This document shows positions 5,031 to 48,709 of a DNA stretch of 64,000 bases, piece after piece (the first letter of the stretch is position 1; every line of letters starts with the position of its first letter). The notes below the pieces were generated by a model. The model worked only from the letters and a program-made list of their open reading frames with translations, was not told where the DNA came from and did not search any database. The stretch comes from an uncultured Hyphomicrobiales bacterium. GTDB lineage: Bacteria > Bacteroidota > Ignavibacteria > Kapaibacteriales > UBA7675. The stretch lies in NCBI GenBank assembly GCA_964445695.1, contig CAYULF010000007.1:23638-87637 (forward strand), written 5' to 3'. The position numbers and the translations under genes were made by a program.

Positions 5031-6341
5031 TCAGTCCACTACAACAAGCACTCTGTTAAACAACTTTACACCGACTCTCAACCGCAGCACATACACTCCT
5101 GCCTTGACAAAATCCATCTTGTTCGTCACGCGGTTCAAACCCTGTGGGAATTCGTGCTGAAAGACTTGTTTAACCAACGCGCCGCGCATGTCGAACAGCT
5201 CAGCTGTCACAAGTCCCTGAGTCTCAAGTGTGAAGTTTAGTGTTAAGTCGCCGGTCGTCGGGTTTGGAGACAGTGAGAAGTTAAACTCAGGTTTGTCTGG
5301 TTCGGAAGTGTTGATTCCTGTCGCGGTGTAAATCGATTCTTTGGTGCGGTATATATCGCCTTTGTTGGTTCCGCCGTAGAGGTATCCCAGCGAGTCGACA
5401 CATAGCGAATAGAAGCCGAAGTCGGGATTGTTGGGATAAAGATTTGTCCAGGAATCGCCTTCGTCGCTGGAATACCAGATTGTTCCGGCTGCTGAGCAGA
5501 TGAAGTTGTCATAGCGGTCGACGATCATTGCGAGGATATTCCCGCGCGGATAGTTCGCCGGCCAGCCATTAAAAAATTCCCAGTTTTTCCCGGCATCTCG
5601 GGAGCGAAATACAGAAGTTTCCGTTTCATTCGTTCCTACCAAGATTGTTCCCCCGGAATTAATTGCCATCGAAAGCGGGTCCCAGTTAAACTCGCCCAGC
5701 CCACCCGGCGCGTAGATATTGTGACACTCGTCGTCTCCGTTGCGCAGGACAAAGAGACCTTTCCAGCGCCACGAACCCCAGAACACATCGCCATTGGGAT
5801 GCAGTGCAATGCACATGCTTTCCGCACCATTGCTGATGAAGTCACAGACTAACTCCCAGCTTGCTCCACGGTCGTTTGAAACCCACGTTCCATCAGCTAC
5901 AAACTGACCTTTATAGCGTCGTTGCATGGCAACATACAAAGTGCCGTCATCCTTTTCGACGAAGTGATAATACTCGATTCTGGGAATGTCATGTTGATCG
6001 TGCGTGTAGGTGGCCCAAGATTCCCCATTATCAGCAGAAAGAAACACTGAATCACGTCCGCCGACCAAGATGGCACCGTCACGAAGAATGGTGACGCCCG
6101 GTACAATGCCGAAGTCGGAAATCGGGACATGTTTCCACGAAGTTCCGGCATCGTCGCTGCGCCATAGTCCCGATCCGGTGGCCGCAAAGATCGTTCCGTC
6201 ATTCGCCGCGATGTTTGCGACATAACGAAGATCGCGTTCTATATTTTCCGTCGTATTGATCCAGAAATCTTCATCGAATGCATGAAGCGTACCGAGCGAC
6301 AGTATGAAATTCGCTGCGAATATTGCGGCAAACATTTTCAT
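5031..6341 (-). CDS. BNR/Asp-box repeat (sialidase / Ycf48-like beta-propeller) protein with T9SS C-terminal domain
   Basis: Repeated SxDxGxSW-type Asp-box motifs (SDDAGTSW, SADNGESW, SNDRGASW, SRDAGKNW, SSDEGDSW). Signal peptide starts at internal Met (MKMFAAIFAANFIL). C-terminal SPNPTTG...GVYVLRL tail. Confidence 0.7.
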   Translation of the reverse strand: MKMFAAIFAANFILSLGTLHAFDEDFWINTTENIERDLRYVANIAANDGTIFAATGSGLWRSDDAGTSWKHVPISDFGIVPGVTILRDGAILVGGRDSVFLSADNGESWATYTHDQHDIPRIEYYHFVEKDDGTLYVAMQRRYKGQFVADGTWVSNDRGASWELVCDFISNGAESMCIALHPNGDVFWGSWRWKGLFVLRNGDDECHNIYAPGGLGEFNWDPLSMAINSGGTILVGTNETETSVFRSRDAGKNWEFFNGWPANYPRGNILAMIVDRYDNFICSAAGTIWYSSDEGDSWTNLYPNNPDFGFYSLCVDSLGYLYGGTNKGDIYRTKESIYTATGINTSEPDKPEFNFSLSPNPTTGDLTLNFTLETQGLVTAELFDMRGALVKQVFQHEFPQGLNRVTNKMDFVKAGVYVLRLRVGVKLFNRVLVVVD

Positions 6342-6408
6342 GGCAACGTTTCCACGGTTAGAATCAACCGGGGCACATGCCCCGGTTGCTCCAATGTACA
6401 ACATACAA

Positions 6409-9400
6409 TTACTCGATAAACATCAATTCGGACTGGCTGTGACCGCCGGCTGTCTGCATGCGGCAGAGATAAACACCCGGCGCATACGCTTCGTTGCGAA
6501 ACACCAGTTCATGACTTCCGCTTTCCAACCGGCGGTCTGCAATGACGGCCACAATACGACCCTGCATGTCGGCAATTTCAATGCGCAGATGCTGCGGCGA
6601 ACCGACTTCGACCCGGATTGTCGTTTTGTCGCCGAAAGGATTGGGCGAAATACCACTCAGGCGGCAATCACTCCGATCAACGACCGGCCCGGTTTCTCCT
6701 GCGCGTTTGGCTTGCTGCAGCGGCGGCGTGCGATAACGTTCCAGGTCCTGATTGATCTGTCCGTTCCATGCCGCCATTTTACTGTCATATGCCGCCCCGT
6801 GCGTCTGGCCGCACTCCAGCAGATCGAGTTTCTTGAGCCGCCAGCCTGCCAGCATCGAGTCGGGTGAAGACGGCACGGACTGGCAGACAAGTTCAAAGGC
6901 AATGCGCGCATCGGGATAACGGCGTAGGTGCTCAAGGATCACGCCGTCGAGCAGCATCAGGCCGCCGCGCAGCAGTGTGTCGTTCGCCACTGTCGTGTCG
7001 GCCGCCAGGATCGTGCCGATCCAGCCGCGCAAGGTATCCAGTCGCTGTTCCGTTGAGTCGCCCTTCAGCGCTGCGCGGAATGTATCTTTCGCGCGCGTGC
7101 GCCGCACCGTCGGCAGCAGCGTCGGGTCGGCCAGGTCGTCCAGCGCGCGGACAAAGATCGAATCGGGTGTATTGTCCATCACCGGCCCGAAGGGATTCAG
7201 ACTGCCCAGTTGCTGCAGTTCGGGCGGCGACGGACAGGACTGAAAGTCTTCGTCCGTAGCGCAGCCCATCGTCGATTCACTCTGATCGAGCTGGTCGCCG
7301 AGCACCTGTACCAGCGGGCCACGGCGCACATTGAACGTACCATCGGGATTGTTCCAGCGATTTGATGTGACCAGGACCATTGCGAAATAGTTGGCATCGA
7401 TGTGCAGATCGGTTTCGGCTGCAAAGTTGTTCAAGCCGCAAGGCGGAATCACACTGCCGTAACTCTGCATGTGAGCATCTCTTCTCATAAGATCAGAATC
7501 AAAGAACTCACTCTGTGGTTGGTTTCGTGGCTGTACAACAAACACATTGCGGCCAAACTCATCAACTTGCCCAGGGTTTTCGTTCGGCCGCAGATAGATC
7601 GTTCCACCATCGGCGTTGACGCCCTCCATGAAGAAGTCAAGGTGGCTGCCGCGCATCCAGACGCGGTCGGCCGAGGTGCCGATGATGCCCGAGTGAATGT
7701 TGGCATAGGCCGCGTCGTAGACGCGCGATTGCGCCGTGGCGGTGTAGGTGCCGCAGCGCCAGACGCTTTGCGCGGTATTGCCGCATTCAAAACTCTCCGA
7801 GCGCGGCCCGTTGATGTGTATGAAGTTGTCGACGATGTCGGCCCTGTTGCCGGTCAGGTCGACGGAGCCGGCGTCGATCGTTCGAATTCCAGCTTCGACG
7901 GCGCGAAAATTCGAGTTGTGCAGTGCCAATGATTCAAGATTCATCGAAAACAATCCGTGGAATTTGTACTCCTGAAGCATGCGGTTGCTGGAGTTGTCGT
8001 CCTCTCCGTCCTCATCGGCAAACTCACAATCTTCAAATCTTGCGTTAAGCGCAGGCGGCGGCGTGATCGGATCGCCGTCGCCGGGCCAGTAGTTGACCTC
8101 CACCAGGTTCTGCCAGGGCATGTTCAGCGATCTGGCGGCTGTGAAGCTGCAATTGCTGACGGTGTTGATGCGAATATTGATCGCCTGGACGGCCACATTG
8201 GAAAAAGCGGCGTTCTCAAGGCGCAGCCCGGACGCGGCGATGTCGTCAATGTCGCCTTTGGCGATGAGACGCGCGTGGTCTACGACGCCGTCACAGAGCA
8301 CGTAGGGATTGGCAAGTTCAACTTCGGGAAAACGACCGGTCACGCGGGCGAGATTCCCGGCCTGACCAGCCACCGTCATGTGCCCCTGACACTCATTGAA
8401 GTAGTCCGGATCGCGTAGAGCAAGGTGCGCGCCCGCACCGACCACAAACTCACCGTCGGCCTCCACGCGGAAATGGTCCAGACTGACGACGGCGTTTTCA
8501 CCAATCTCTACGCGGCCGCCGGGAAGGACGTAGATATGTGTAAAGAGGTCGACGTGCGCGCCGGGCTGCACAAGCAAGGTCGCACCCGCATCGATCACGA
8601 CCATGCGATCAAAGTGCGTGCCCGGATCGCGCTCGATCCGCGAGCCGTACATCATCTCCAGCGTGCCGCCGGGTTTGACAAAGACATCGCGGCCGCCGCT
8701 CATCGTGATCTGCCCGCCGGGGCGCATGCGCATCCAGCCGCGCACAAAGACCGCACCGCTGTCCTGCATCCGCACATTGCCGAAAACCTCACAGACGTTG
8801 GCCTGAGCAGGACCGGCCATCAGGCAGCCGTTTGTTCCTTCGTCGCCGCGCACGATCAGATCGCCGACAAATGTATCGCCGCTCAGCTCGACATTGTCGA
8901 GCATGCCTTCGGCCACGATCTCGCCGTCGCCCGTGGTCGTTATTCCGTTGCCGCCGGTCGGCGTGCCCGACGTAACGATGCCGTCGATGGCCAAGGTGGC
9001 GTCGCCCGGCACGGTCAGCGTGACGCCGCTGCCGTTGAGTTCGGTCACGCCCTGATTATTGTGGTTCTCACCCGGCAGACTCGCGCCGCCCGCCTCGTAG
9101 AGGTCGAGCACTTCACCACTCAGGCCGTTGCCGTTGACGTCCTCGTTCGCGCCTTCCCGAAACCACGCGCCCATATGCATGATGCGTTGTCCGAGCGGCC
9201 CTCGTTCGTCGTTGTCAAATGGCAGCGTTACTGAAGCGGTGTAACGTTGGTCGGCCTTGAGCGAAATGGTGTGTGCCACGGCACGGTAAGCATTGACCTT
9301 GCCGAAGCCCATGCGCTGCGCCCAGCTACGTCGCCGCGGATCGTTCGCCTGCTCCAAGTAGTCGAACTGAATCAGCTCATCGTTGCCGTCGACGCCGGAG

Positions 9401-28771: not shown

Positions 28772-28854
28772 GCGGAAGTGGCGGAATGGCAGACGCGCCA
28801 TCTTGAGGGGGTGGTGTCTTAATTGACGTGCGGGTTCAAGTCCCGCCTTCCGCA
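28772..28854 (+). tRNA. tRNA-Leu (anticodon GAG), CCA not encoded
   Basis: Hand-folded cloverleaf: acceptor GCGGAAG/CTTCCGC; anticodon stem CCATC/GGTGG with loop TTGAGGG (anticodon GAG at 34-36); long variable arm; T-arm GCGGG-TTCAAGT-CCCGC; discriminator A. Confidence 0.85.
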
Positions 28855-34376: not shown

Positions 34377-37154
34377 ATGAACTTCTCAGATTTTGTTAAC
34401 AACCATTATGATATTCACAGAGCCGCACGGACTCGATTATTGTTTCCGCTGGCATTTGTCCTGATGTTAACACCACTTCTATTCGGCAACTTGTATGCAA
34501 GCGCCGACGACGGCGACTGCTGCGAAAACATCGAGTTTCGGTACGAAAACTCGGATCTGGGCGACTGCTGCTTCGACATCTACATTGCCTTCGACAATGA
34601 GTTCGATTGCAATGTCGATAAAGCGCGCATCACTATCCAGGGAGAAGCCGTAATGATGACGGTGGACAATGCCGACTGGACGCCTGAGATAAACGGCAAT
34701 GAAGTCACCTGGACCGGCGTACCCAACGCCGGTGAAGAAGTATTCCTTGGCACCCTGTGCATTGACGGCCCCACGGCTTGTTACACGGCCGTCTTTGCTT
34801 ACTGCGACGCCGACAGAATGGAGTGGATCGAATGCAAAGATGATATTAAACTCTATTGCAGCATCAGCGATGCTTCACTGTGCGGCACAAAATTCCTCGA
34901 CGCCAACTGCAACGGCATTCGCGACGAAGGCGAACCCGGCATCCCGGATTGGACTATTAAGATATACAACCAGGAGAACGGTACGCTGCTCTCAACCACG
35001 ACGGATGAAAACGGCAACTACAAGTTCTCGGCACTTGACCTGGCTCCCTGGTTTGTCTACGAAGTGCAAATGGACGGATGGGCCCAGACCGCGCCGACAG
35101 CGGGTCGCTACTTTGTTGAATTGAGCGAAGGAGAGATAATCGAAAATCTCGATTTCGGCAACATTCCGACCTGCACGGCCGAGGAGCGCACGGTTGCGAC
35201 ATACCTGGCAGGCGAAAAGGACGACTTTGCCCCAGGCGCTGACGTGCCGCCCGCATCGCTCAGTCCCGAGCTGGCCGAGTTCCTTAAAGGACGCACACTG
35301 GCCGGTTTTGACGACAGCAATAACAACCGCTTTTTTGCACACAGTTTTACCGACTTCGGTATGGACAATTGTTGCCTGGTGGCCGCTTGTTTAACAATCC
35401 ACATGAAAACGAACAGTTCGAGCCTGAGCCACAACGACGGCATCGGCTTTGTTCAGGACGGCGAGGTGATTTACTACAACAGTCTGTCCAACCTCCTCGG
35501 CGGAACCAACTGGCAGAACCAGCCTGCAACTACGCTTAAACTCGATCTGGGCGATCTGCTTGAACACCGCGGAACCAGCATCCTCCCCTCACTGCACGAC
35601 GGCACACTCGATTTCTACATTCAGGACGACACGCAGATCGACTGGGTAGAACTGCGCGTGGAACACTGCTGTGAGCCGGATTGCTGTGAATACCTGAGTC
35701 CTCGCTACGACAATGCCGGCGCCGAAGGTCCTTGCTGCTTTCAGTTTTTTGTCGACGTGGCCGACGGCTGGCCCTGCAATTACGAGCAGGTACGCATGAC
35801 CGTGCTGACCGATGAAGATGTTACAATTACATACAGCGGCGACGGCAGTCACACGTACACGATTAACGGCAAGCAGATTACCGTCGAACACACACTTGGT
35901 GAAGGTGGAAACAATCTGGGTATTTACTGTATCGACGGCACCAGCCAGAGTTTCAACATTATGTTTGAGTACTTCGACGCCGAAACTCAGACCTGGGTAA
36001 GCTGCGGCGAATATCTGGAAGTCTTCTGTTTAATCGAGAGCGGCTCGCTCTGCGGTACAAAATTCGAAGACACCGATTGTGACGGTGTGCGTGATCCGGG
36101 CGAACCCGGTATTGCCGACTGGGAGATTGTGATTGTCAACCGCACGACCGGTGAAACGATGACGACCACGACGGACGGCAACGGCGACTACAAATTCAGC
36201 GATCTGGAATATGCAACCTGGATTGTGTATGAAACACAGCAAACGGGTTGGGCGCAGACCTTCCCGGCTTCGGGTCGCTACGTCGTTGAAGTCTCTTCCA
36301 ACACGGCGGTTGAAAACCTCGACTTCGGCAATGTGCCTATCTGCGCCGATGTAATGGAAACGAGCGAACTCGCCGGTGAAATGGATGATTTCGACACTGC
36401 TACTGTCGATAATCCGCCGGCCAATCCCAGCGACGAGTTGCGCGACTTCCTGGCCGGACGTTCGCCGATCGTTGGTTTTGACAACTCAAACAACGACCGC
36501 CACTTTGCGCATACCTTTACGGATGTGTTAACCGAATTGCGTGAGGCCGGTTGCTGTATTGTCGGCGCACAACTTGACATTCGCGTTCGCACAAACAGCT
36601 CAGGGTTAAGTTGGAACGACGGCATCGTGTTTGTGCAGGACGGCGTGGCCATTTGGGGTTCGCGCATCGGGACTCTGGCAGGTGTCAACTGGGTAAGCCA
36701 GCCGGGAACGATCATTTCGATCGATCTGGGCAATCTTCCCGGCGGCAACGCCACCAGTATCCTGCCCATGCTGCTGGACGGCACGCTCGACTTCTACATT
36801 CAGGACGACACCAGCGTCGACTGGGCCGAGTTGACAGTCCAGTATTGCTGTGAAGAACCCGGCCAGACTGTTCCGGTCAAAGAAGACGGTGAAACGAGCG
36901 CGTTCCTGCTGAAACCGAATCCGGCCGCCAGTACGATCTCGCTTGATTTCAACGTCGCCGACGCGGGCGTCTGGAACTTCGATGTGGTTAACAATCGCGG
37001 CGAAGTAGTTTATTCGCATGGCGCAGTGAACTTCAGCGCCGGCGAGCAGTCGCTGAACTTCGATGTACGTTCGCTGGTTAACGGCGCGTACTTCCTGCGC
37101 ATTCGCACGGCCGACGGCAGTGTTCAGTCGCTGCCGTTCTCGGTGGTTCGATGA
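34377..37154 (+). CDS. Cysteine-rich modular secreted protein with two internal repeats (Cys-rich module + SdrD-B-like domain + CC-bounded module) and T9SS C-terminal domain; paralog A
   Basis: 925 aa. Signal peptide. Vicinal-Cys motifs DCCEN, DCCFD, DNCCLVAACL, HCCEPDCCEY, GPCCFQFF, AGCCIVGAQ, QYCCEE. Two copies of LCGTKF.D..C.G.RD.GEPGI.DW.I...N...G....TTTD.NG.YKF (SdrD B-like). KPNPAASTISL...GAYFLRI...FSVVR C-terminal tail. Confidence 0.8.
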   Translation: MNFSDFVNNHYDIHRAARTRLLFPLAFVLMLTPLLFGNLYASADDGDCCENIEFRYENSDLGDCCFDIYIAFDNEFDCNVDKARITIQGEAVMMTVDNADWTPEINGNEVTWTGVPNAGEEVFLGTLCIDGPTACYTAVFAYCDADRMEWIECKDDIKLYCSISDASLCGTKFLDANCNGIRDEGEPGIPDWTIKIYNQENGTLLSTTTDENGNYKFSALDLAPWFVYEVQMDGWAQTAPTAGRYFVELSEGEIIENLDFGNIPTCTAEERTVATYLAGEKDDFAPGADVPPASLSPELAEFLKGRTLAGFDDSNNNRFFAHSFTDFGMDNCCLVAACLTIHMKTNSSSLSHNDGIGFVQDGEVIYYNSLSNLLGGTNWQNQPATTLKLDLGDLLEHRGTSILPSLHDGTLDFYIQDDTQIDWVELRVEHCCEPDCCEYLSPRYDNAGAEGPCCFQFFVDVADGWPCNYEQVRMTVLTDEDVTITYSGDGSHTYTINGKQITVEHTLGEGGNNLGIYCIDGTSQSFNIMFEYFDAETQTWVSCGEYLEVFCLIESGSLCGTKFEDTDCDGVRDPGEPGIADWEIVIVNRTTGETMTTTTDGNGDYKFSDLEYATWIVYETQQTGWAQTFPASGRYVVEVSSNTAVENLDFGNVPICADVMETSELAGEMDDFDTATVDNPPANPSDELRDFLAGRSPIVGFDNSNNDRHFAHTFTDVLTELREAGCCIVGAQLDIRVRTNSSGLSWNDGIVFVQDGVAIWGSRIGTLAGVNWVSQPGTIISIDLGNLPGGNATSILPMLLDGTLDFYIQDDTSVDWAELTVQYCCEEPGQTVPVKEDGETSAFLLKPNPAASTISLDFNVADAGVWNFDVVNNRGEVVYSHGAVNFSAGEQSLNFDVRSLVNGAYFLRIRTADGSVQSLPFSVVR

Positions 37155-37914: not shown

Positions 37915-40689
37915 ATGCAGAGATCAGATTGTTTATACACTTTTTTTAACAGTCGCCGCTCAGGACCGACGAGTTGGCCGTTCCTGACAGCGCTTGTGCT
38001 GCTGTTCTCACCCGTTTTTTTTACAGCTTTACAGGCCGCTCCCGATGACGGCGACTGCTGTGAGAGCATAACCTTGCGCTACGTTAACTCGGAGATCGGC
38101 GATTGCTGTTTTGACCTGTACATTGCATTTGACGAAGACTTTGATTGCAACGTCGATAAAGCGCGGATTACCATCCAGGGCGATCCCGTTACGCTGACTG
38201 TTGAAAACTCAGAATGGCAGCCCGTAATCAGCGGGAATGAGGCGACCTTCACCGGCGTGCCCACTGCAGGAGACGAAGTGTACCTGGGAACCGCTTGCAT
38301 CACCGGAGCAGAAGCCTGCTACTCGCTCACATTTGAGTACTGTGATGCCGACAGCCAGCAATGGGTCGTATGCAAAGACTCGTTTAAACTTTACTGCAGT
38401 ATTGCAGATGCTTCTTTGTGCGGCACAAAGTACGAAGACCGCAACTGCAACGGCATCCGCGACGAAGGTGAACCGGGAATTCCGGACTGGACGATTGAAA
38501 TTCACAACCTTGAAAACAATCAGACACTTTCGACGACAACCGACGCGGACGGCAATTACAAGTTCGAAGATCTCGACCTGGCGCCTTGGTATGTCTACGA
38601 AGAGCAAATGGACGGATGGGCCCAGACCGCGCCTGTCCACGGTCGATATTTTGTTGAACTGACGGAAGGTCAGACAATCGAAAATCTCGATTTCGGCAAC
38701 ATCAGCGTTTGCCCGGCGGATGACCGGACTGTGTTAACATTTCTGGCGGGCGAAAAAGACAACTTCGATCCCGACGCCGACACTCCAGCCGCATCGCTCA
38801 GTCCGAGTTTTGCCGAATACCTGTCGGGGCGCGCCGTGACCGGATTTGACGATTCGGACATCGACCATTTCTTTGCACACAGTTTTACGGATTTTGGAAT
38901 GGACAACTGCTGCCTTGTTGCGGCCTGCCTGACAATTCATATGCGCACAAACAACTCCAATCTGAGCCGCAATGACGGCATTGGCTTCCTGCAGGACGGA
39001 GTTGGCCTGTATTACAATACCATTTCCAACCTGCTCGGAGGAATCACCTGGCAGAATCAACCGGGAACAACACTTAAACTCGACCTGGGCAATCTGCTGA
39101 CGAACAACGGTACAAGCATTCTACCATCCCTGCGCGACGGAACACTGGACTTTTTTGTCCAGGATGACACGCAAGTCGACTGGGTTGAATTGACCGTGGA
39201 GTATTGTTGTCAATCGGATTGCTGTGAACACCTGACGCCGAGCTATACCAACGTCGGCGATGAAGGCCCCTGCTGCTTTGAGTTTAATGTCTCCGTGGCG
39301 GAAGACCTGGGCTGTGAGTTCGATGCCGTGCGTATGTCCGTGCTGTCCGAAGAAGCGGTGACCATAACTTACAACGGAGACGGCAGCCACGATTACACAA
39401 TCGACCCCAACCAGATTACCGTCAATCAGACACTGGAAGAAGGTGAAAACGGGCTCGGCATTTACTGTATTGAAGGGCTCTCGACCGTCTACCATATCGC
39501 CTTTGAGTACTTCGACGTTGAAACCCAGACCTGGATAAGTTGCGGCGAATACCTGCGTGTCTATTGTTTAATAGAGAGCGGATCGATTTGCGGCAACAAA
39601 TTCGAGGACACGGACTGCGACGGCTTGCGCGACATCGGTGAACCAGGAATTGAAAACTGGGAGATTGTGATTGTCGATCCGGTCTCGGGTACGGTAGAAA
39701 CGACGACGACCGACAGCAATGGCGACTACAAGTTCGAAGACCTGGAATACGCAACCTGGATCGTGTATGAAACACAACAGTCGGGTTGGGTCCAAACATC
39801 ACCGGCTGCCGGACGATACGTTGTCGTTGTTTCATCAAATTCAGCAGTTGAAAACCTGGACTTCGGCAATTCGCCCATTTGTGAAGACCCGCTTGAAACC
39901 AGCGTTCTGGTGGGAGAAATGGACGACTTCAATCCGGATCCGGATGTGCCCGCCGCATCGCCCAGTGACGAACTTGTCGAATTTCTGGCGGGACGTTCGC
40001 CAATCGTAGGTTTTGACAATGGAACCATTAACCGTCATTTTGCTCATTCCTTTACCGACCTCCTTGAAGAACTGCATCTGGGCGGCTGTTGCATTGTCGG
40101 CGCACAGCTCAGACTGCGCGTACGCACCAACAACTCGTTCTTCAGCTGGAACGACGCCATTTACTTTGTGCAGGACGGGCAGGTCATCTGGAGCTCCAGC
40201 ATCGGCGTTCTGACCGGCGTCAGGTGGACCAACCAGCCGGGAACGATCATCACGATCGATCTGGGCAACCTGCCCGGCGGCAACGCAACCAGCATTATGC
40301 CTATGTTAATCGATGGTTCACTGGACTTCTACCTACAGGATGACACAAGTGTCGACTGGGTCGAGTTGGTGGTTCAGTACTGCTGCGGCGATCACGAACA
40401 GACTGTTCCGGTCAAAGAAGATGGTGAAACGAGCGCGTTCCTGCTGAAGCCGAATCCGGCCGCCAATACGATCTCGCTTGATTTCAACGTCGCCGACGCA
40501 GGCGTCTGGAACTTCGATGTGGTTAACAACCGCGGCGAAGTAGTTTATTCGCATGGCGCAGTGAACTTCAGCGCCGGCGAACAATCGCTGAACTTCGATG
40601 TACGTTCGCTGGTTAACGGCGCGTACTTCCTGCGCATTCGCACGGCCGACGGCAGTGTTCAGTCGCTGCCGTTCTCGGTGGTTCGATGA
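37915..40689 (+). CDS. Cysteine-rich modular T9SS-sorted protein, paralog B (same architecture as paralog A; about 70% identical in the body, about 98% nt identity over the last about 290 bp)
   Basis: 924 aa. Same CC motifs and two SdrD-B-like domains. C-terminal 95 aa essentially identical to paralog A. Confidence 0.8.
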   Translation: MQRSDCLYTFFNSRRSGPTSWPFLTALVLLFSPVFFTALQAAPDDGDCCESITLRYVNSEIGDCCFDLYIAFDEDFDCNVDKARITIQGDPVTLTVENSEWQPVISGNEATFTGVPTAGDEVYLGTACITGAEACYSLTFEYCDADSQQWVVCKDSFKLYCSIADASLCGTKYEDRNCNGIRDEGEPGIPDWTIEIHNLENNQTLSTTTDADGNYKFEDLDLAPWYVYEEQMDGWAQTAPVHGRYFVELTEGQTIENLDFGNISVCPADDRTVLTFLAGEKDNFDPDADTPAASLSPSFAEYLSGRAVTGFDDSDIDHFFAHSFTDFGMDNCCLVAACLTIHMRTNNSNLSRNDGIGFLQDGVGLYYNTISNLLGGITWQNQPGTTLKLDLGNLLTNNGTSILPSLRDGTLDFFVQDDTQVDWVELTVEYCCQSDCCEHLTPSYTNVGDEGPCCFEFNVSVAEDLGCEFDAVRMSVLSEEAVTITYNGDGSHDYTIDPNQITVNQTLEEGENGLGIYCIEGLSTVYHIAFEYFDVETQTWISCGEYLRVYCLIESGSICGNKFEDTDCDGLRDIGEPGIENWEIVIVDPVSGTVETTTTDSNGDYKFEDLEYATWIVYETQQSGWVQTSPAAGRYVVVVSSNSAVENLDFGNSPICEDPLETSVLVGEMDDFNPDPDVPAASPSDELVEFLAGRSPIVGFDNGTINRHFAHSFTDLLEELHLGGCCIVGAQLRLRVRTNNSFFSWNDAIYFVQDGQVIWSSSIGVLTGVRWTNQPGTIITIDLGNLPGGNATSIMPMLIDGSLDFYLQDDTSVDWVELVVQYCCGDHEQTVPVKEDGETSAFLLKPNPAANTISLDFNVADAGVWNFDVVNNRGEVVYSHGAVNFSAGEQSLNFDVRSLVNGAYFLRIRTADGSVQSLPFSVVR

Positions 40690-40894: not shown

Positions 40895-41971
40895 TCAATC
40901 GCTCTCTTCCCTGACGTGATCAATACCGCGCGCCACAATATCGACCATCTCCTCGCGCTCCTCGGCGTCGGGCGGCGCAATTTCCTCCGCCTCATCTGAA
41001 GCCGGCAGGCATTGCAGTTTAATGAATATGGGAAAGTGATCAGACCCGAAGTGTTCAAGCCGGCGCAAGTCCGCAACCACAAAGTCCGAAGTGTGAAACA
41101 CGTGGTCGAGCGGCCAGCGCAGCCACCAGCGCCGTGCGTTGAATGTGTTGAACGCGCCGCGGCCCTTGCGCGGATCGAGCAGCCCGCTGATCTTTTGAAA
41201 AAGATTGTTTGAATGCGACCAGGCCACGTCGTTGAGATCTCCGGCGACAACTGTGGCTTCGCCCCGCGCGCGAATGCGATCGGCACAGATTAACAGTTCG
41301 GCGTCGCGAGGAGCGGAACTGTCGGCCTCGCCCGGCGCCGGCGGCTCCGGGTGTAAACAATAGAGCCTGAATTTGCGTCCACTCTGCAATTTAACATGAC
41401 AATGAATCGAGGGGATATCCTTTTTAAGCAGGTATTCCACGCGAGGTTCAATCAACTCCAGGCGTGAATACAGCGCCATGCCGTAGAGATTGTCGCGCAG
41501 ATCGGCAACATACCACTTAAACATTTTCCGCAGCTCGGTCAGTTGTTTATCCCACCACTCATCCGGTTCGAGCAAAAGGAGCATGTCCGGCTGCTCGCGC
41601 TTAACAATCTCCAACAGACCGTCCGTATTGCGATTGCTCATCAGGACGTTGGCAACCAGAATGGACAGTGTATCTGCATTCCTGTTGTTCGCGGAGGCCG
41701 ACTGCGCTTCCAACGCCGCCAGGCGCGAATAGGGAAACAAGGTAAATACCTGATACAGCGCCGCCGCAACGGCCGTTAACAAAACCACAACATTGACAAG
41801 GAAGTCCGACGGCCCGCAACTGACAAACAACACGGTGCAGGTAAGCAAAAACAGCAGAAGCAGATATCGCGGAAAATCAAAAGCGCGAATCCACCACTCG
41901 TCGCGGCGAACAAGCGGCATGACGTTTGCAATTACTGCCAGCAACAACAGAATCGTCGTGAAGATGTTCAT
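40895..41971 (-). CDS. Endonuclease/exonuclease/phosphatase (EEP) family protein with N-terminal multi-TM region. ORF track extends it antisense through fbaB to 42985; trimmed to Met 41971.
   Basis: MNIFTTILLLLAVIANV... four hydrophobic helices, then EEP-like C-terminal domain ending ...GSDHFPIFIKL (catalytic SDH motif). Confidence 0.7.
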   Translation of the reverse strand: MNIFTTILLLLAVIANVMPLVRRDEWWIRAFDFPRYLLLLFLLTCTVLFVSCGPSDFLVNVVVLLTAVAAALYQVFTLFPYSRLAALEAQSASANNRNADTLSILVANVLMSNRNTDGLLEIVKREQPDMLLLLEPDEWWDKQLTELRKMFKWYVADLRDNLYGMALYSRLELIEPRVEYLLKKDIPSIHCHVKLQSGRKFRLYCLHPEPPAPGEADSSAPRDAELLICADRIRARGEATVVAGDLNDVAWSHSNNLFQKISGLLDPRKGRGAFNTFNARRWWLRWPLDHVFHTSDFVVADLRRLEHFGSDHFPIFIKLQCLPASDEAEEIAPPDAEEREEMVDIVARGIDHVREESD

Positions 41972-42184
41972 ACAGATTTGCTGCGGAATTGAACTAAAAT
42001 CGACCTGACACAAATCTAGTGAAAGCGGGCTATAATCCCGCTGTGGGCGTCCGTCGCATTCGCCTGCGCGACTTTGGCTCCGTCCGATTGCACGCCATCC
42101 GCGCCACTTTTCGTAAATTGCGGCCGGAAAACGAACAAAATTACAAATCGACTTTTGAATCCAGGATTTTTCCGAGGCCGTATC

Positions 42185-43234
42185 ATGATCGATCGCATCA
42201 CGGAACTGCTTGGCGACCGCGCCGAGAACCTGCTCGGGCACACGTGCCGGACCATTGACAAATCCAGTCTGCATCTGCCTTCGGCCGACAGCGTCGACAA
42301 GGTGTTCACGTACTCGGATCGCAACAACCGCGTGCTGGGCAATCTGCAGCGCATCATGGACACCGGCCGTCTGGGCGGCTCGGGCTACGTTTCCATCCTG
42401 CCGGTGGACCAGGGCATCGAGCACACGGCAGGCGCCAGTTTTGCGCCGAATCCGGCCTATTTTGACCCCGAAAACATTGTTAAACTGGCGATTGAAGGCG
42501 GCTGCAACGCCGTGGCTTCCACCTTTGGCGTACTGGGCATCACAGCGCGCAAATACGCCCACAAAATTCCCTTTGTCGTTAAAATCAATCACAACGAACT
42601 GCTGACCTATCCGAACAAATACGATCAGCAACTCTTCGGCACGGTGGAACAGGCTTACGACATGGGCGCGGCGGCTATCGGCGCCACGATCTATTTCGGT
42701 TCGGAAGAAAGCAGCCGCCAGATTGTGGACATCGCCCACGCCTTCGCCCATGCGCACGAACTCGGCATGGCTACGATTCTGTGGTGTTACACGCGCAACA
42801 ATGCGTTTAAGGCCGACAAAGACTACCACACCGCTGCGGACCTGACCGGTCAGGCAAACCACCTGGGCGTCACTATCCACGCCGATATTATTAAACAAAA
42901 GCTGCCCGAAACCAACGGCGGTTTTTCGGCGCTCAAATTCGGCAAAACACATCCGGCCATGTACGACCAACTCTGCAGCGACCACCCGATCGACATGTGC
43001 CGCTATCAGGTGGCCAACTGCTACATGGGTCGCGTCGGTTTAATTAACAGCGGCGGCGCTTCCGGCAGCAACGACTTCCAGGACGCGGCGGCAACGGCGG
43101 TGATTAACAAACGCGCCGGCGGCATGGGCCTCATTTCCGGCCGCAAGGCATTCCAACGCCCGATGGACGAAGGCGTCCAGCTGCTCAACCTCATCCAGGA
43201 CGTATATCTTTCCGACGACGTCACGATCGCCTGA
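42185..43234 (+). CDS. fbaB: Class I fructose-bisphosphate aldolase (FbaB/DhnA type). ORF open from 42074; Met 42185 matches the FbaB N-terminus.
   Basis: Near-collinear similarity to E. coli FbaB recalled from memory: [76 protein letters not shown]. Confidence 0.9.
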
Positions 43235-43272
43235 CCTGGTGCGGCGACGTGTGTTTAAGTTCTGACAAGATC

Positions 43273-43299
43273 GGCTCACCCATGCGGGTGGGCCTTTTT
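43273..43299 (+). terminator. Rho-independent terminator after fbaB
   Basis: Stem ggcucaccc/gggugggcc (one G-U), loop augc, then UUUUUC. Confidence 0.7.
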
Positions 43300-43595
43300 C
43301 ATGAGCTTTTTGTTCGTCGCGCAGACCAAAGTCTTCGAGTCCCTGGTTCGCCTGAAACACTTCCACATTCTGTCTCTCAGCCCGCGGCAAAACCACAGGT
43401 CCCGCGCGCAGGACGCTCGTCCCGCAACCGTGCGCCATGAAATCCGGCTGCCGCAGCTGCAAACGCCAATCCCGGTCGAAGTGTCCGCAGGCGGACGAAA
43501 TTGCGTCACACTTCACTAATCCGCCGCACCGCTCGTCAACAATGCCGTCCGCGCGCAAAACATCGCGCGGCGCATTTTCCAGCCCGGACGCTGCT

Positions 43596-45353
43596 ATGCA
43601 AGAATTACGCCGCCTGAAACCTTACCTCAAACGCCATTCAAAGATCATCTTCTTTGGATTTGTGTTTGTCACGCTGTCCAATGTTGCCGCCATCCTCGGC
43701 CCGCGCATCATCGGCGATACCATCGATCTGATTGAGCGCGAAGGTTTCAATGCGGCCATGTATTCGGACGTATTGTGGCATGTGGCGGCATTCCTTGGCA
43801 CGGCGGCATTCTCGGGCGTTTTTATGTACTACACGCGGCGCACGATCATCGTCGCCTCGCGGCGTATCGAGTACGAACTGCGGCGCGACCTGCTCGGCAA
43901 GCTGGAAACGCTGCCGATGCGCGCGATCCAGCAGACATCCACCGGCGAATTGATGGCGCTGGGGACCAACGACATCTCCGCCACGCGCGAATTTCTGGGC
44001 CCGGCGATCATGTATTCCGCCAACACATTGACGCGCGGACTCTTCGCGATCGTCATGATGATCATCGCCAGCCCGCTCCTGACGCTCTATACGCTCATTC
44101 CCCTGCCGCTGGTCTCGCTCGTGACCTACTGGATCGGCAAGAAAGTCCACGTGCTCTTCCGCAGTGTGCAGGAACAGTACGGAGCTCTGACGACGACCAC
44201 GCAGGAGAATCTCTCCGGCGTGCGCGTTGTGCGCTCCTTCACGCGCGAAGAACACGAAAAAGACGAATTCGGCAACCAGAGCCGCAAATACCTCGATCGC
44301 AACATTTCGCTCGTAAAAATCCAGGGATTGATGATGCCGCTCATGGTCGTGCTGATCGGCGCGGCGCACGTCATCATTCTCTTTGCCGGCGGAAATATGG
44401 CTATCAGCGGCGAAGCCACCATCGGCGAGCTGACGCAGTTTTTCATGTACGTCACCTTCCTGATTTGGCCGGTGATTTCAATCGGCTGGGTCATCAATAT
44501 CATACAGCGTGCCTCCGCCTCAATGGGCCGTCTCGGCCGCATTTTTGATCTGGACGTCGACATTCAGGACGGCCGCGATCTCGAGGCGAAACTCGACGCC
44601 GAGGCCGGTTCGATTGAGTTCCGCAACGTCAGTTTTGCCTATCAGGAAGACAGTGAGCAGGTGCTCAAAGACGTGAGTTTCACGCTGGAGGCGGGCCAAA
44701 CGCTCGGTATCGTCGGCGCTACGGGCAGCGGCAAAACGACGCTCATCCGCCTGCTGACGCGCCTCTACGACGTCAACGACGGCCAGGTGCTCGTCGGCGG
44801 CCGCGACGTGCGCGACTACCCATTGGAAGTGCTGCGCTCAAGCATTGCCGTTGTGCCGCAGGAATCATTCCTCTTTTCCACCACCATCGCCGAAAACATT
44901 CGTTTTGGACGCCCCGACGCGACAATGGAAGAGGTGATGGAAGCCGCCGGCATTGCCCAACTGAGCGACGAAGTCGACAATTTTGAAAAGGGCTGGGACA
45001 CGCTCGTCGGCGAACGCGGCATCACACTCTCCGGCGGACAGAAACAACGCACATCGATTGCGCGCGCCATCGTGCGCAAACCGGTCATCCTGGCGTTTGA
45101 CGACGCCCTCTCCGCCGTCGACACGGACACGGAGGAGCGCATCCTGCGCGGATTGGACACAGTCGTGCAGCAGCGCACGGGAATTATTATTGCCCACCGA
45201 ATTTCATCGGTTAAAAACGCCGATAAAATTATTGTTCTTCACGATGGCCGCGTGGCCGAAAGCGGCACACATGCCGAGTTGCTGGAACACGACGGCCTCT
45301 ACGCCGACATGTACCAGAAACAGTTGCTGCAGGAAGAAATCTCGCGGATGTAG
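43596..45353 (+). CDS. ABC transporter ATP-binding/permease protein (MsbA-like exporter). ORF open from 43437; Met 43596 preferred.
   Basis: Six-TM exporter domain followed by NBD with Walker [10 protein letters not shown], signature LSGGQKQR, Walker [14 protein letters not shown]-loop IAHR. Confidence 0.88.
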
Positions 45354-45388: not shown

Positions 45389-45955
45389 ATGCTTGCTTCC
45401 CCGCCAGAGCATGAATTTGCATTGCGTAAAACGACATACTCCCTGCTTTTTACGCTTGTTGCGATACAGGTTTTGATAGTCTTGCCCGTTACGTTTACCG
45501 TGGTTCTGTTGAAGGGTGGCTCAAAGTTGTTAATGATTGTGCCGACGGTCCTCACGGCTATCATAATTGCTGTCATTTACCTTAAAGCACGCATCTTCAT
45601 CACGCCGGAGTCAGTCCGTCTGGACCTCCCCAGGAACAGGATAAATATTGATTTTGCAGCCATCAAAATTTTAACACTCTCTAACCATGGCTTGCTTGTA
45701 GCCCAGAGTAAGTACAAGATTATTTACATCAGCGCCGCCTGGGCCGATGCGGGCGCAGCCGCTGATTACGTCATACATAGACTGAACGACCTCGGACTGC
45801 TCGATTCTATTGAACTGCATGGCGACACTGAGAAAATTGCGGCGGTGGCCGATCGGAAAGAGCGACTTCATTTTCAGACACACCTGCAGCACAGATTCCT
45901 CAGCAAGTACTTCGGGCAATCCGGCGACAACGGGGGCAGACAGCAGAATCATTGA
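45389..45955 (+). CDS. Small membrane protein, paralog 1 of 3 (2 TM + conserved cytoplasmic domain); possibly bacterial PH (bPH_2/DUF304)-like
   Basis: Two hydrophobic helices, then conserved block AADYVIHRLNDLGLLDSIELHGDTEKIAAVA shared with the next two genes. AGGA-like RBS upstream. Confidence 0.55.
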   Translation: MLASPPEHEFALRKTTYSLLFTLVAIQVLIVLPVTFTVVLLKGGSKLLMIVPTVLTAIIIAVIYLKARIFITPESVRLDLPRNRINIDFAAIKILTLSNHGLLVAQSKYKIIYISAAWADAGAAADYVIHRLNDLGLLDSIELHGDTEKIAAVADRKERLHFQTHLQHRFLSKYFGQSGDNGGRQQNH

Positions 45956-45983
45956 CAGCAGCGACTTTCGCAGGTGAAACTTC

Positions 45984-46547
45984 ATGGCAGCTCAAAGTTT
46001 AAACACCGACTTAAACACAGAGCCGACGGTGCGTTTTGGCCCGAGCCGTTTAGTCAGAGTTCTCCTCTGCCTGGGAACCGTTGTGTTCGCTGCCGGTGCG
46101 CTGTTCATGTTTGCCGCGGATGTCAGCCAGGGCGCTCTGATTTTTTTACTCTTTGTGCTCGGTTTTATCGTGCTTGCCATCTTTTCCTTCCGCTCTTTTC
46201 TGGAGATCAACAAACAGTGTGTTTGCATGCGCATGTTCCGCACGACGGCGATAGAGTTCAACGCCATCACGTATTTGAAATATCACCGCCAGGGCGTGAC
46301 TATCAGAACAAAGGATAAAAAAATCATCAGTTTTGACCGCAGTTTCCGCGATGCCGGCGCAGCGGCCGAGTACATTATTAGGCGCCTGAAACACTTAAAC
46401 AGACTCGACGAGATCGAATTGGATGGCGACCTCAAACGCATCAACAAAATTGCTACTCTGGAGGCGGATGCCGATCTGGAACACCCGGTGACTTCAGCCA
46501 TGACGCGCGCGCTGCTGGACGGGCTCTTTGACGCACTGAGCAGCTGA
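45984..46547 (+). CDS. Small membrane protein, paralog 2 of 3
   Basis: Two TM helices; AAEYIIRRLKHLNRLDEIELDGDLKRINKIA block; AGGTGA RBS-like sequence upstream. Confidence 0.6.
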   Translation: MAAQSLNTDLNTEPTVRFGPSRLVRVLLCLGTVVFAAGALFMFAADVSQGALIFLLFVLGFIVLAIFSFRSFLEINKQCVCMRMFRTTAIEFNAITYLKYHRQGVTIRTKDKKIISFDRSFRDAGAAAEYIIRRLKHLNRLDEIELDGDLKRINKIATLEADADLEHPVTSAMTRALLDGLFDALSS

Positions 46548-46684
46548 CGGACTTGAGCGCTTCGCCCGAACTCGGGCTTGCTTTTTCTTTTTGTTTATTA
46601 TTGTGAGAGAGTTCCGCGGGTTTGCAGCTTGTGAGGAGACCTGAACAAAATTCAGAACAAATCGCTAAATCAATCGAGAATTCC

Positions 46685-47254
46685 ATGACAAACAGCGACA
46701 AACAAGCTTTCCAGAACAATACCCCGCCGGCGCCAAAACTAAGAGTCAAAGTTGGCTGGATACTGCTGTCCTGTTTGTTTGTTTTGCTGTTTCCACTGGC
46801 GGTACTTCTGTCATTGTTTGCATTCAACATATTCGCCGCTTTAACAGTCGGACTCATGGCTCTTGCAATGCTTGTGTTTACGGTTGTGGTGTTCCGAACC
46901 TACCTTCAAGTCAGCGAATCATTTATCAGAAGCCGGATAGTGTTCACCAGAACAATAGCCTTCAAGGACATTAACAAGCTGAAAATGGACGACGACTCGT
47001 TGAAAATCTCCTCCAGTACAAACACCAACATCGTCATTTATTCCAGTTATCAAAGCTCCACTGTCGCTGTTGAATACATTATTCGCCGCCTCAAATCAAT
47101 GAACAGACTGGAGGAAATCGAATTGTGCGGCGACACGGCAAAAATCAAAAAAATTGCCGAGTCCAAATTGAAATTGCGCTTCAAAAAATCGTTCGCCGGC
47201 TCGGCTGCGGGAGAGATTCTATTGGGTCTGCTGGAGGGCTTGGGCAACAACTGA
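46685..47254 (+). CDS. Small membrane protein, paralog 3 of 3 (ORF open from 46622; Met 46685 used)
   Basis: Two TM helices; VEYIIRRLKSMNRLEEIELCGDTAKIKKIA block. Confidence 0.6.
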   Translation: MTNSDKQAFQNNTPPAPKLRVKVGWILLSCLFVLLFPLAVLLSLFAFNIFAALTVGLMALAMLVFTVVVFRTYLQVSESFIRSRIVFTRTIAFKDINKLKMDDDSLKISSSTNTNIVIYSSYQSSTVAVEYIIRRLKSMNRLEEIELCGDTAKIKKIAESKLKLRFKKSFAGSAAGEILLGLLEGLGNN

Positions 47255-47542
47255 GCAATTTGTCTGTTGGGGATTTGATGTAACCTGTTGATTGCCGTTG
47301 GGAGCGAGGTTTTCGGCTTTGCTGCCTGTGGTGCGGCGACGAGCCTTGAACGCTGGTACGGCGCGGTTTGGCGCGGACTCGGAGACTCGGGGTTTCTAGC
47401 CGGATGACGAGCAAAATTGCAAGGAAGCCTGCCGCCGAAGATAAAAGAAGGCGGCAAAGCGCTCAGGCAAACATGGTAAGACGGTGAGGTTAATTTTGGC
47501 GGGCTAACGGCAATAGTGGAAAACAGATGTTTAAAATACAAA

Positions 47543-47599
47543 AGACCTGTTAAGTCGGGATAAGCATTCTCCAAGGTAATTCCCGGGCTTAACAGGTCT
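47543..47599 (-). terminator. Inverted repeat (12-bp arms, 33-nt loop) followed by a U-rich tract on the minus strand, immediately downstream of porV
   Basis: agacctgttaag ... cttaacaggtct; minus-strand continuation UUUGUAUUUUAA. Confidence 0.4.
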
Positions 47600-47629
47600 C
47601 TGTAATTTTCAAGGACGGGCTGCGGGCGT

Positions 47630-48709
47630 TTACTGCTCGCGACCCCAGTCCACCAACAGCGTAAAACGCATCGTATTGGCAAGCGGGTGGTTTTCCTCAA
47701 CCGGGCTGATAAAGCTGAAGTCCAGCTGGAACAGCTCAAAACGCACGCCCGCGCCAAAAGTCAGGTATTGACGATCACCAATGCGCGAAGGCTCTGTAAA
47801 ATAGCCGGCACGCAGAGCAAAGACCTGCTCATACCAGTATTCCGCTCCGAGCGAAAGCTCCACGCCGCCGGTTTCCCAGGCAGTGATGAAGGATTTCGGA
47901 ATACGGTCGGCGCCGAATTCATCACGACGCACGAGCAGTTTGGCAACGTCCACCGCCAGGATCAGGTCGTTGAATTCATCGCGCACAACGTTAAGTCCAA
48001 GACCAAGCCGCAGCATTGTGGGGAGCGGATCCGACTCTTCGTTGTAGGTAACGCTGGGACCGACGTTTTGCAGGTTAAAACCAAGCGACAGTTTGTCGTC
48101 GAGGTCGACGCCGAACAGGTCGAGTTTTTCAGGCGCCCAGAGGATACCGAGGTCAAAGCCGACGGAGATACCGGTACCGGATCCCGTGCCCTGCGCATTG
48201 GCGCCTTCGGCCAGATTGGACTGTATGTAGCGGAACTGCGTTCCGAAACCAAAGTCGTTGCCGAGTTGGGTTGCGTAGGTAAGCCCGAGAGAGAACTCGT
48301 TGGAACGGAAGGTTCCGAGGATGCGACCATCGACCGAGGTCCGCGTAAACTGCCCCAGGTTCATGAGGATGAAGTTGGCGGCGACGTATCCTTCCAGCTC
48401 CTCCACGTATTGGCCGTAGGCCGCATAGCTGTAGAAGAGGTCCGCATTAAACTGCGGCAGCCATTTGGAGAAGGACAGTGAGACTTGCCGATCGTACTGA
48501 AAAGCGAGACCGCCCGGGTTCCAGAAAATGGCATTCAAATCGTCGGCGATTCCCGTCCCGGCATCGCCCATGGCGCTCGAACGAGAGTTGGGTGCGATGA
48601 GCAAGAAGGGAACGGCGGCGCCGCCGGCTTGTGCCAATGCTTCTTTTGCACCGAATCCCAGCATGAGCATCACCACGATGGCTTTTGGGATGAGATTTTT
48701 TCGCAGCAT
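47630..48709 (-). CDS. porV: T9SS outer-membrane shuttle/channel protein PorV (PorV/PorQ family beta-barrel)
   Basis: Signal peptide, then family-typical N-terminal block AVPFLLIAPNSRSSAMGDAGTGIADDLNAIFWNPGGLA. 359 aa. Immediately downstream of the porU candidate, as in the conserved porU-porV operon. Confidence 0.75.
   Translation of the reverse strand: MLRKNLIPKAIVVMLMLGFGAKEALAQAGGAAVPFLLIAPNSRSSAMGDAGTGIADDLNAIFWNPGGLAFQYDRQVSLSFSKWLPQFNADLFYSYAAYGQYVEELEGYVAANFILMNLGQFTRTSVDGRILGTFRSNEFSLGLTYATQLGNDFGFGTQFRYIQSNLAEGANAQGTGSGTGISVGFDLGILWAPEKLDLFGVDLDDKLSLGFNLQNVGPSVTYNEESDPLPTMLRLGLGLNVVRDEFNDLILAVDVAKLLVRRDEFGADRIPKSFITAWETGGVELSLGAEYWYEQVFALRAGYFTEPSRIGDRQYLTFGAGVRFELFQLDFSFISPVEENHPLANTMRFTLLVDWGREQ

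Follow-up and report, generated by a model that had tools for sequence, protein, structure and literature searches.

Three divergent tandem paralogs with a predicted PH-like domain beneath a membrane hairpin, encoded downstream of an ABC exporter gene in an uncultured bacterium

Three tandem paralogs downstream of an exporter gene

This study deals with an array of three consecutive plus-strand genes, here called A, B, and C, that code for small membrane proteins in a stretch of 64,000 nucleotides (nt) from contig CAYULF010000007.1 of an uncultured bacterium (assembly GCA_964445695.1); this whole stretch is referred to as the window. The array lies downstream of a gene for an ATP-binding cassette (ABC) exporter and is followed by porV and porU in the convergent orientation. 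Paralog A (45389-45955) codes for a protein of 188 amino acids (aa), in which a membrane hairpin at residues ~17-67 is followed by a predicted PH-like domain at ~68-150 and by a basic, His-rich C-terminal tail. Paralog B (45984-46547) codes for 187 aa and ends in an acidic C-terminal helix, and paralog C (46685-47254) codes for 189 aa from the ATG at 46685, has the same architecture as B, and ends in a basic C-terminal helix. In the program-made list of open reading frames (ORFs), C starts at a TTG at 46622 (46622-47254, 210 aa); the ATG at 46685 is favoured by the gene callers behind the public data and by the alignment of the three proteins. A fourth copy was not found within the 64-kb window. 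An earlier reading of this DNA from the letters alone (the original prediction) had described three tandem plus-strand paralogs with two transmembrane (TM) helices and a shared soluble domain, and coordinates, BLASTP, and hydropathy all agree with it. It had also placed the array between an MsbA-like exporter and porV, and we likewise find an ABC exporter upstream and, downstream and convergent, PorV and a C25/PorU-type peptidase. Its statement that every copy has its own sequence like a ribosome-binding site is borne out for B, which has a clear AGGTGA; such a sequence is weaker in A (GGACAGGA) and in C (GAGAA).

Pairwise BLASTP gave E 3e-16 for A and B (36% identity over 101 aa), E 2e-21 for B and C (35% over 152 aa), and E 2e-13 for A and C (31% over 108 aa). 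Judged by these comparisons the paralogy of A, B, and C is far beyond chance, and identities of 31-36% are in keeping with the old divergence that had been proposed for the copies. There are 27 invariant columns in the alignment of the three proteins and most of them fall in the motif A-x-x-Y-x-I-x-R-L...L-x-x-I-E-L-x-G-D-x-x-x-I-x-x-x-A, which had been recognised before in a slightly different form and occurs in all three copies with minor deviations. The most conserved part, as marked by the invariant columns, is residues 127-149 of B (AEYIIRRLKHLNRLDEIELDGD; 46362-46430, plus strand), and it corresponds in the alignment to 45761-45826 of A and 47066-47134 of C, also on the plus strand. Within it lies a 63-nt DNA repeat that is 76% identical between 46368-46430 and 47072-47134. 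The motif spans the C-terminal helix of the predicted PH fold, the next strand, and a G-D turn, and it is kept even in a distant family from Balneolales-type bacteria that is described below.

The exporter gene (43542-45353, plus strand; 43437 is the start in the ORF list) codes for a half-size ABC exporter of 603 aa with a transmembrane domain and a nucleotide-binding domain (Pfam ABC_membrane 1.7e-46 and ABC_tran 1.1e-31). In NCBIfam it comes closest to SmdA, MsbA_rel, and MsbA, each time under the equivalog cut-off, and may be called SmdA/MsbA-like; it carries no C39 peptidase domain. Four genomes were compared, namely, that of the window, L001 (GCA_030430495.1, 'MAG: bacterium isolate Co_bin.359'), L002 (ENA ERZ27271384), and L006 (Logan ERR13847729), and the gene order is the same in all four: a gene for a DeoC-type aldolase, the ABC exporter, A, B, then C where it is present, and the convergent porV and porU. 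On the plus strand 35 nt separate the stop of the exporter gene from the start of A, and 28 nt separate the stop of A from the start of B. A terminator-like hairpin (GCCCGAACTCGGGC) with a T-run follows B at 46564-46595 on the plus strand; it is kept in L001, L002, and L006, and is thus conserved in 4/4 genomes, and it is the sole well-formed site of its kind in the ABC-A-B-C stretch. C starts 137 nt past the stop of B, beyond this hairpin. No Rfam family was found in the intergenic regions. Because the gaps are short and the terminator-like hairpin occurs only after B, it is rather likely that A and B are in an operon with the ABC exporter, whose gene would probably be the first of that operon, and C is apparently transcribed separately as a unit of its own.

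Membrane hairpin, predicted fold and tests for known families

According to hydropathy every copy has a pair of neighbouring hydrophobic helices at residues ~17-70. This N-terminal membrane hairpin is followed by ~90 aa of soluble domain. In the AlphaFold2 models the membrane helices are at 22-44 and 48-70 in B and at 23-45 and 49-70 in C. Lys and Arg residues number 2-4 at the N-terminus, 0-2 in the inter-helix loop of 4-5 residues (KGGSK in A), and 2-3 within 15 residues past the second helix. The positive-inside rule would thus put both termini in the cytoplasm, clearly so in B and C and less clearly in A. Periplasmic exposure would be almost nil, so that any recognition of compounds from outside would need to occur within the bilayer.

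The AlphaFold2 model of B, made from an alignment of 7 sequences, has a mean predicted local distance difference test (pLDDT) score of 75.1, and that of C, made from 15 sequences, has 80.6, with 86-96 in the soluble domain. The two models agree in the order of their elements. A short N-terminal strand comes before the two long helices; six strands and a 14-residue helix follow, and after these come an extra strand (I-E-L) and two more helices, of which the first is short and the second is terminal. In B the first strand is at 16-18 (19-21 in C), the six strands lie within 72-117, the helix is at 124-137, the extra strand at 145-148, and the short helix at 150-158. The terminal helix is modelled with low pLDDT in B (46-49) and moderate pLDDT in C (59-73). 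A PH domain is a seven-stranded antiparallel beta-sandwich closed by a C-terminal helix, and the strand before the hairpin together with the six strands and the helix after it gives just this number of elements. When the B and C models were compared with the PDB by Foldseek, the leading matches were essentially all of the PH superfold, with a probability of 0.9-1.0, E ~7e-3 to 0.2, and 72-110 aligned columns. These matches include the double-PH domains of SSRP1/Pob3, talin F3, kindlin, the PH domains of CARMIL and Avo1, and the PTB domains of X11, Dok1, and SNT. On the strength of the models the soluble domain very probably has a PH-like fold.

In eukaryotic PH domains the loop between strands beta1 and beta2 faces the membrane and binds lipids. 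The models suggest that the hairpin would occupy the position of this beta1-beta2 loop if the N-terminal strand pairs with the sheet, with beta1 coming from the N-terminal side of the hairpin. Placed in this way, the hairpin would hold the PH-like domain flat beneath the membrane. The domain is extended in the models by the conserved strand-turn-helix (I-E-L-x-G-D...) and, in this clade, by the charged C-terminal helix. The bacterial PHb proteins of PF08000/DUF1696 likewise have a beta-sandwich that is capped by a C-terminal helix, as in our models (PMC2817789). The PF08000 proteins are soluble, whereas A, B, and C are anchored in the membrane, and it is the short strand before the hairpin that could supply beta1 in the latter. 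The membrane families DUF304, DUF1200, and DUF2244 have been described as being without strand beta1; their domain was predicted to be cytoplasmic and to oligomerise (PMC2817789).

The search for a known family was made with the Pfam and NCBIfam models. The original prediction had suggested a likeness to bPH_2/DUF304 (PF03703), and membership in that family is not supported, since none of the three proteins matched its model even at E <= 10. The architecture of the bPH_2 type is nevertheless present, that is, a two-helix hairpin followed by a PH domain that is predicted to be cytoplasmic, encoded in tandem genes; membership in bPH_2 is not implied by this. The nearest profile models, which are also those of the distant relatives, are EbsA-like (PF17255), DUF6560 (PF20197), DUF6585 (PF20226), and STM3941 (NF041635), and the scores for A, B, and C are all under the curated cut-offs. 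With the EbsA-like model (cut-off 25.9 bits) B scored 24.8, C scored 14.0, and A did not match, so that B is borderline and the trio as a whole fails; P0002, an ortholog of B, has a precomputed weak match to PF17255. The other best scores were 18.1 bits for DUF6560 (cut-off 27.8), 13.4 for DUF6585 (27.7), and 11.9 for STM3941 (40). These weak matches span the second TM helix and the first strands. A profile search against the sequences in the PDB gave a single chance match (E 1.1), and a literature search on DUF6585, DUF6560, STM3941, and PF17255 surfaced only unrelated 'Bph' rice papers.

The PH-like fold is thus well supported and, since the evidence from sequence is weaker, the proteins are not assigned to any named bPH family. 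The earlier guess of a bacterial PH-like domain therefore holds at the level of the fold, given the AlphaFold2 models, the Foldseek matches, and distant relatives that belong to bPH_6 or DUF6560. No confident assignment to a well-characterised family was obtained and all the copies look real. We conclude that A, B, and C make up a sequence family that had no name before and has a very narrow distribution, and that its kind is known already, namely, a 2TM anchor with a cytoplasmic bacterial PH domain, encoded by tandem genes beside that of an ABC transporter.

Distribution, origin of C and rates of evolution

Orthologs of A and B are present in L001, L002, and L006, while C is found solely in the window genome and in L006, a close strain in which all three copies are intact. 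In word-indexed homology searches B alone retrieved 3 proteins and the alignment of the three paralogs retrieved 7, all from the same small clade. An exhaustive profile search over 1.84 billion representative proteins returned 3 strong clusters, which are the A/B/C family itself, and 14 weak matches with E from 1e-6 to 1e-3. Among the weak relatives with two TM helices, P0013 passes the bPH_6 cut-off and P0017 that of DUF6560, and others come near the EbsA-like cut-off. One weak match, P0010 (6841 aa; profile E 7e-6), was rejected as a relative. It is a giant repeat protein with leucine-rich repeats like those of ribonuclease inhibitor, 25 of which each weakly resemble the part of the motif that reads like L-x-x-L-x-x-I-D-L-S-G-N, and it is a false positive. 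A scan of the GTDB genomes added one locus that is identical to L001; no relatives of A, B, or C were found in two JGI metagenome scans or in plasmid and phage collections. As far as these searches reach, the close family is confined to four near-identical loci of uncultured bacteria.

The distant family comes from Balneolales-type bacteria and consists of proteins of 142-181 aa that are encoded by single-copy or two-copy genes. Its named members come from Fodinibius (Balneolales), for example MDZ7682837.1 of Fodinibius sp. and LX73_1364 of F. salinus, and UniRef names one member 'PH domain-containing protein'. These proteins share the architecture of A, B, and C over their whole length and have both the E-F/Y strand motif at the N-terminus and the L-x-x-I/V-x-L-x-G motif at the C-terminus; they differ in being without the last helix of ~30 aa and are 14-21% identical to C, with profile E-values of 1e-6 to 1e-3. 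At all five loci examined the gene is beside kptA. In three of the five (L004, L005, and L009) a peptidase S9 gene follows, and in L007 and L008 the distant-family gene is followed by a pair that codes for ABC_tran and UPF0014 domains. On L009, a Balneolales-type metagenome contig, there is a tandem pair at 6001-6468 and 6564-7031 that codes for two proteins of 155 aa, 25% identical to each other (E 3e-12). Tandem duplication with deep divergence thus recurs in this protein lineage, and recurrent divergent tandem paralogs would fit either hetero-oligomers or diversification.

These relatives bear on the possibility that A, B, and C work without the exporter, as PH-like adaptors tethered to the membrane, either in the manner of EbsA or as auxiliaries of the type IX secretion system (T9SS) proteins encoded by porV and porU. 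EbsA is known in cyanobacteria as a partner of PilB and Hfq, and it binds PilB, the ATPase of the type IV pilus, directly (PMC11407516; PMC8092324). The EbsA-like model is the nearest Pfam model for B, yet B stays under its cut-off and the fit is worse for C and absent for A. Neither pilB nor hfq is among the genes examined at 34-58 kb, and neither was looked for beyond this immediate neighbourhood. The distant relatives are found without an adjacent exporter of this type, which speaks for such a role, but they are not near T9SS genes either. Although porV and porU adjoin the array in 4/4 genomes, they are convergent with it and lie past the terminator, so co-expression is not implied, whereas the gaps of 28-35 nt point to co-transcription with the exporter. 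Taken together we consider an adaptor of this kind unlikely.

The DNA after B gives a clue to the origin of C. A degenerate copy of the terminator region that follows B is found after C at 47252-47340 on the plus strand, where it aligns with the DNA after B; the motifs of B and C are 704 nt apart, which puts the duplicated unit at ~704 nt; and the alignment of B and C extends through the membrane region. Hence C is a tandem duplicate of B together with its 3' flank, and the duplication is old since B and C are only 35% identical. The triplication that had been proposed holds insofar as there are three paralogs, but the three are not equal because C derives from B and is in 2/4 genomes. In a neighbour-joining tree A, B, and C are monophyletic with respect to the distant family (100%), and A joins B with a support of no more than 61%. 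No remnant of C was found in L001 or L002, and one gain or 1-2 losses of C are equally possible. The GC content of the three genes is 0.46-0.52 and is lowest in C (0.457); that of the window is 0.557.

A and B have evolved much faster than the genes around them. Neighbouring genes of the window are 83-99% identical to those of L001 and 90-97% identical to those of L002; the corresponding values are 50% and 59% for A and 87% and 73% for B, so that A and B are rate outliers against their neighbours. For A the sequences compared were 45389-45955 in the window, 9410-9970 in L001, and 2287-2850 in L002. Rates were expressed as omega, the ratio dN/dS by the method of Nei and Gojobori. Between genomes A orthologs are 49-60% identical with an overall omega of 0.34-0.50, and B orthologs are 73-87% identical with omega 0.13-0.25, while the ABC exporter is 96-99% identical across the relatives with dN/dS of 0.03-0.06. 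The dN of A (0.29-0.41) is more than 10-fold that of the exporter (0.011-0.026). At synonymous sites, too, A and B (0.56-0.94) have diverged further than the flanking genes have (0.27-0.52). The change is concentrated in the hairpin of A, which is 22-30% identical between genomes with omega 0.76-1.39 and so evolves almost neutrally. On the other hand, the helix-strand motif of A is 79-86% identical with omega 0.11-0.21 (0.08-0.21 for the motifs of A and B together), and in the soluble parts of A and B omega is mostly 0.04-0.25, rising to 0.72 in the beta region and 0.47 in the C-terminal tail of A. The nearly neutral hairpin stands in marked contrast to the helix-strand motif, which is strongly conserved, and this indicates the place of the functional interface. 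In the gene tree of A, the window and L002 branch together (100% bootstrap), while according to B and PorV the window is nearer L001; lineage-specific acceleration and allele exchange are both possible reasons for this conflict.

Fast divergence and patchy presence might also mean that one or more copies, above all C or the fast-evolving A, are decaying duplicates with no function. This would account for the absence of C from 2/4 genomes and its low GC content, for the degenerate terminator copy after it, and for the low identity of A between close genomes (49-60%). It is hard to reconcile, however, with the finding that every copy is intact in every genome that carries it and that the motif is constrained at omega 0.08-0.21. 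Between the two strains C differs at 4 synonymous and 3 nonsynonymous sites with the frame undisturbed, and its AlphaFold2 model is the more confident one. Decay is therefore extremely improbable, and the pseudogene reading was rejected on the intact copies and the constrained motif. Since all three genes are intact in L006, omega is low in the soluble parts of A and B, and the model of C is confident, A, B, and C are almost certainly real paralogous membrane proteins.

The same data could be explained by a polymorphic locus of the immunity type, directed against membrane-active toxins of the cell itself or of its competitors, in which the hairpin sets the specificity and the exporter is not directly involved. 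The original prediction had likewise thought of a sensing or immunity-type family, and fast evolution and variation in copy number do fit that part of it. A and B as rate outliers, the omega of the A hairpin, the presence or absence of C among close genomes, the GC content of 0.46-0.52 against 0.56, and the conflict of the A tree with the flanking genes would all fit an immunity locus, and earlier work has tied bPH membrane proteins to immunity against bacteriocins and to the response to antimicrobial peptides. But no toxin, bacteriocin, or small conserved ORF was found nearby among ORFs of at least 20 aa judged by eye, and the plasmid and phage collections yielded no relatives. Nor was there a credible match to the PADLOC defence models; A and B had none and C had one at chance level (E 0.0044) to a restriction enzyme model. 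As to the hairpin, its pattern fits diversifying selection and fits equally an anchor that is kept merely hydrophobic, for which omega ~1 is expected too; with 3-4 sequences the two cannot be separated and positive selection is not demonstrable. We therefore regard an immunity locus as rather improbable.

A possible accessory role for the exporter and other features of the window

Overall, A, B, and C are best explained as PH-like proteins that face the cytoplasm and are accessory to the ABC exporter, a reading to which we give a probability of roughly 45%. The PH-like domains would oligomerise under the membrane, possibly as hetero-oligomers of A and B, with or without C, and the oligomer would be an accessory or adaptor of the exporter that either exports a membrane-active or lipid-like compound or protects from it. 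That the role is specifically one in export or protection is possible but doubtful, and is argued here by analogy. The charges of the C-terminal tails, counted from sequence and conserved in the orthologs, are ~-5 in B, ~+3 in A, and ~+2 in C, and these opposite charges may be a hint, albeit a speculative one, of hetero-association between A and B.

It has been shown that PHb domains form oligomeric rings, and families with 2TM and PHb have been proposed to be transporter-associated (PMC2817789). The closest precedents are the bPH_2/PHb2 membrane proteins of COG3402/COG3428, YdbS and YdbT of Bacillus subtilis and DdE and DdF of Enterococcus faecalis. DdE, which has 2TM and one PHb domain, and DdF are needed for the export of enterocin DD14, with the ABC transporter DdHIJ encoded in the same cluster, and YdbS and YdbT are also encoded in tandem (PMC8657885). 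The ydbST genes are within the sigma-W envelope-stress regulon (PMC3498285), and membrane-active peptides select mutations in ydbT and ydbS (bioRxiv 10.64898/2026.07.05.736553). A, B, and C resemble both pairs in having a hairpin, a cytoplasmic PH-like domain of ~75-90 aa by prediction, and at least two tandem genes on the same strand, and they resemble DdE/DdF in their linkage to an ABC transporter; a role in the export of a membrane-active peptide has been demonstrated for DdE/DdF. An ABC gene within the unit, a feature of that leaderless-bacteriocin cluster, is also seen with A and B, since no terminator-like site occurs from the exporter gene to the end of B. Unlike the two pairs, A, B, and C do not match bPH_2 by sequence, are all single-domain proteins, and are without a three-domain partner like YdbT or DdF. 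The extension of strand, G-D turn, and helix and the charged C-terminal helix are additions of A, B, and C, whose host is a diderm with a T9SS. Also in contrast to the DdE/DdF cluster, no bacteriocin gene was found near A, B, and C.

Several points weigh against an accessory role for the exporter. The linkage of the exporter gene with A and B is limited to four very close genomes, in which the neighbouring genes are 83-99% identical, and it therefore carries little weight; at the five distant-family loci an MsbA-like exporter directly upstream is absent. A plausible gene for a small core peptide was not found in 43235-43541, in 47255-47629, or between the genes, in a search limited to ORFs of at least 20 aa that were judged by eye. 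The precedents are Gram-positive bPH_2 proteins, a model that A, B, and C do not match. None of the three reaches any Pfam or NCBIfam cut-off, and the profile of the soluble domain alone scored 22-25 bits on proteins certified as bPH_6 or DUF6560, which is not significant. The E-values of the Foldseek matches are modest (~1e-2), and no solved bacterial PHb structure is in the top 50 for either model.

A bolder version of the accessory role would make the array a hypervariable specificity module of the ABC exporter that varies in copy number, with hetero-oligomeric rings under the membrane whose fast-evolving hairpins recognise different membrane-active or lipidic compounds in the bilayer. Such compounds would then either be passed on to the exporter or be kept away from the membrane. 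We consider this quite improbable, but if it were true, the part that bPH proteins play in Firmicutes in the export of bacteriocins and immunity to them would be extended to a new family and to Gram-negatives, and there would be a testable mechanism for the wider '2TM + bPH' DUF families to be had. Membrane-anchored bacterial PH domains are widespread and a function is known for almost none of them, the experiments being mainly on YdbS/YdbT and DdE/DdF. The locus adds a very divergent branch to these, in a simple genetic setting of one exporter and 2-3 small genes with natural variation in copy number. Unusual are only the speed at which the hairpin evolves and the fact that some of the genomes have C and others do not; by itself the result is incremental annotation of a tiny family from an uncultured organism.

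On the far side of the array porV (47630-48709, minus strand; Pfam PorV 4.8e-29) is convergent with it and lies outside the ABC-A-B unit. A functional link of the array with the T9SS was rejected because convergent adjacency in four near-identical loci is the sole evidence for it, and T9SS neighbours were not found at the five distant-family loci examined; most simply the adjacency is a positional accident in one small clade. Between C and the stop of porV an intergenic block of ~90 nt at 47525-47615 is ~100% identical across the window, L001, L002, and L006, genomes that differ by 0.3-0.5 at synonymous sites. The block contains a 17-bp inverted repeat (AGACCTGTTAAG.C.GG / CCCGGGCTTAACAGGTCT) and then TTTTGTATTTT on the minus strand. 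The block is probably the terminator of porV, although a small RNA is conceivable. Upstream, at ~47420-47465, there is another hairpin that is conserved (TGCCGCC...GGCGGCA). The DNA between C and porV has no Rfam match, and the fold z-score of the 353-nt region is -2.5.

On the other side, ~6 kb from the array, is a second spot that varies in copy number. Here a tandem pair of paralogous genes (34377-37154 and 37915-40689) codes for T9SS cargo proteins of 924-925 aa, with the domains SdrD_B, CarboxypepD_reg, and SpaA and a Por_Secre_tail; L001 has the first cargo gene alone (95% identical), and behind it are two unrelated hypothetical genes, for 122 and 316 aa, without a counterpart in the window. 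The only match at the Rfam gathering level in the 64-kb window is a tRNA gene at 28772-28854. Finally, in the ORF list an Exo_endo_phos gene of 696 aa (40895-42985, minus strand) overlaps the gene for the DeoC-type aldolase of 386 aa (42074-43234, plus strand); according to the gene calls in the relatives their real lengths are 358 aa (40895-41971) and 349 aa (42185-43234).

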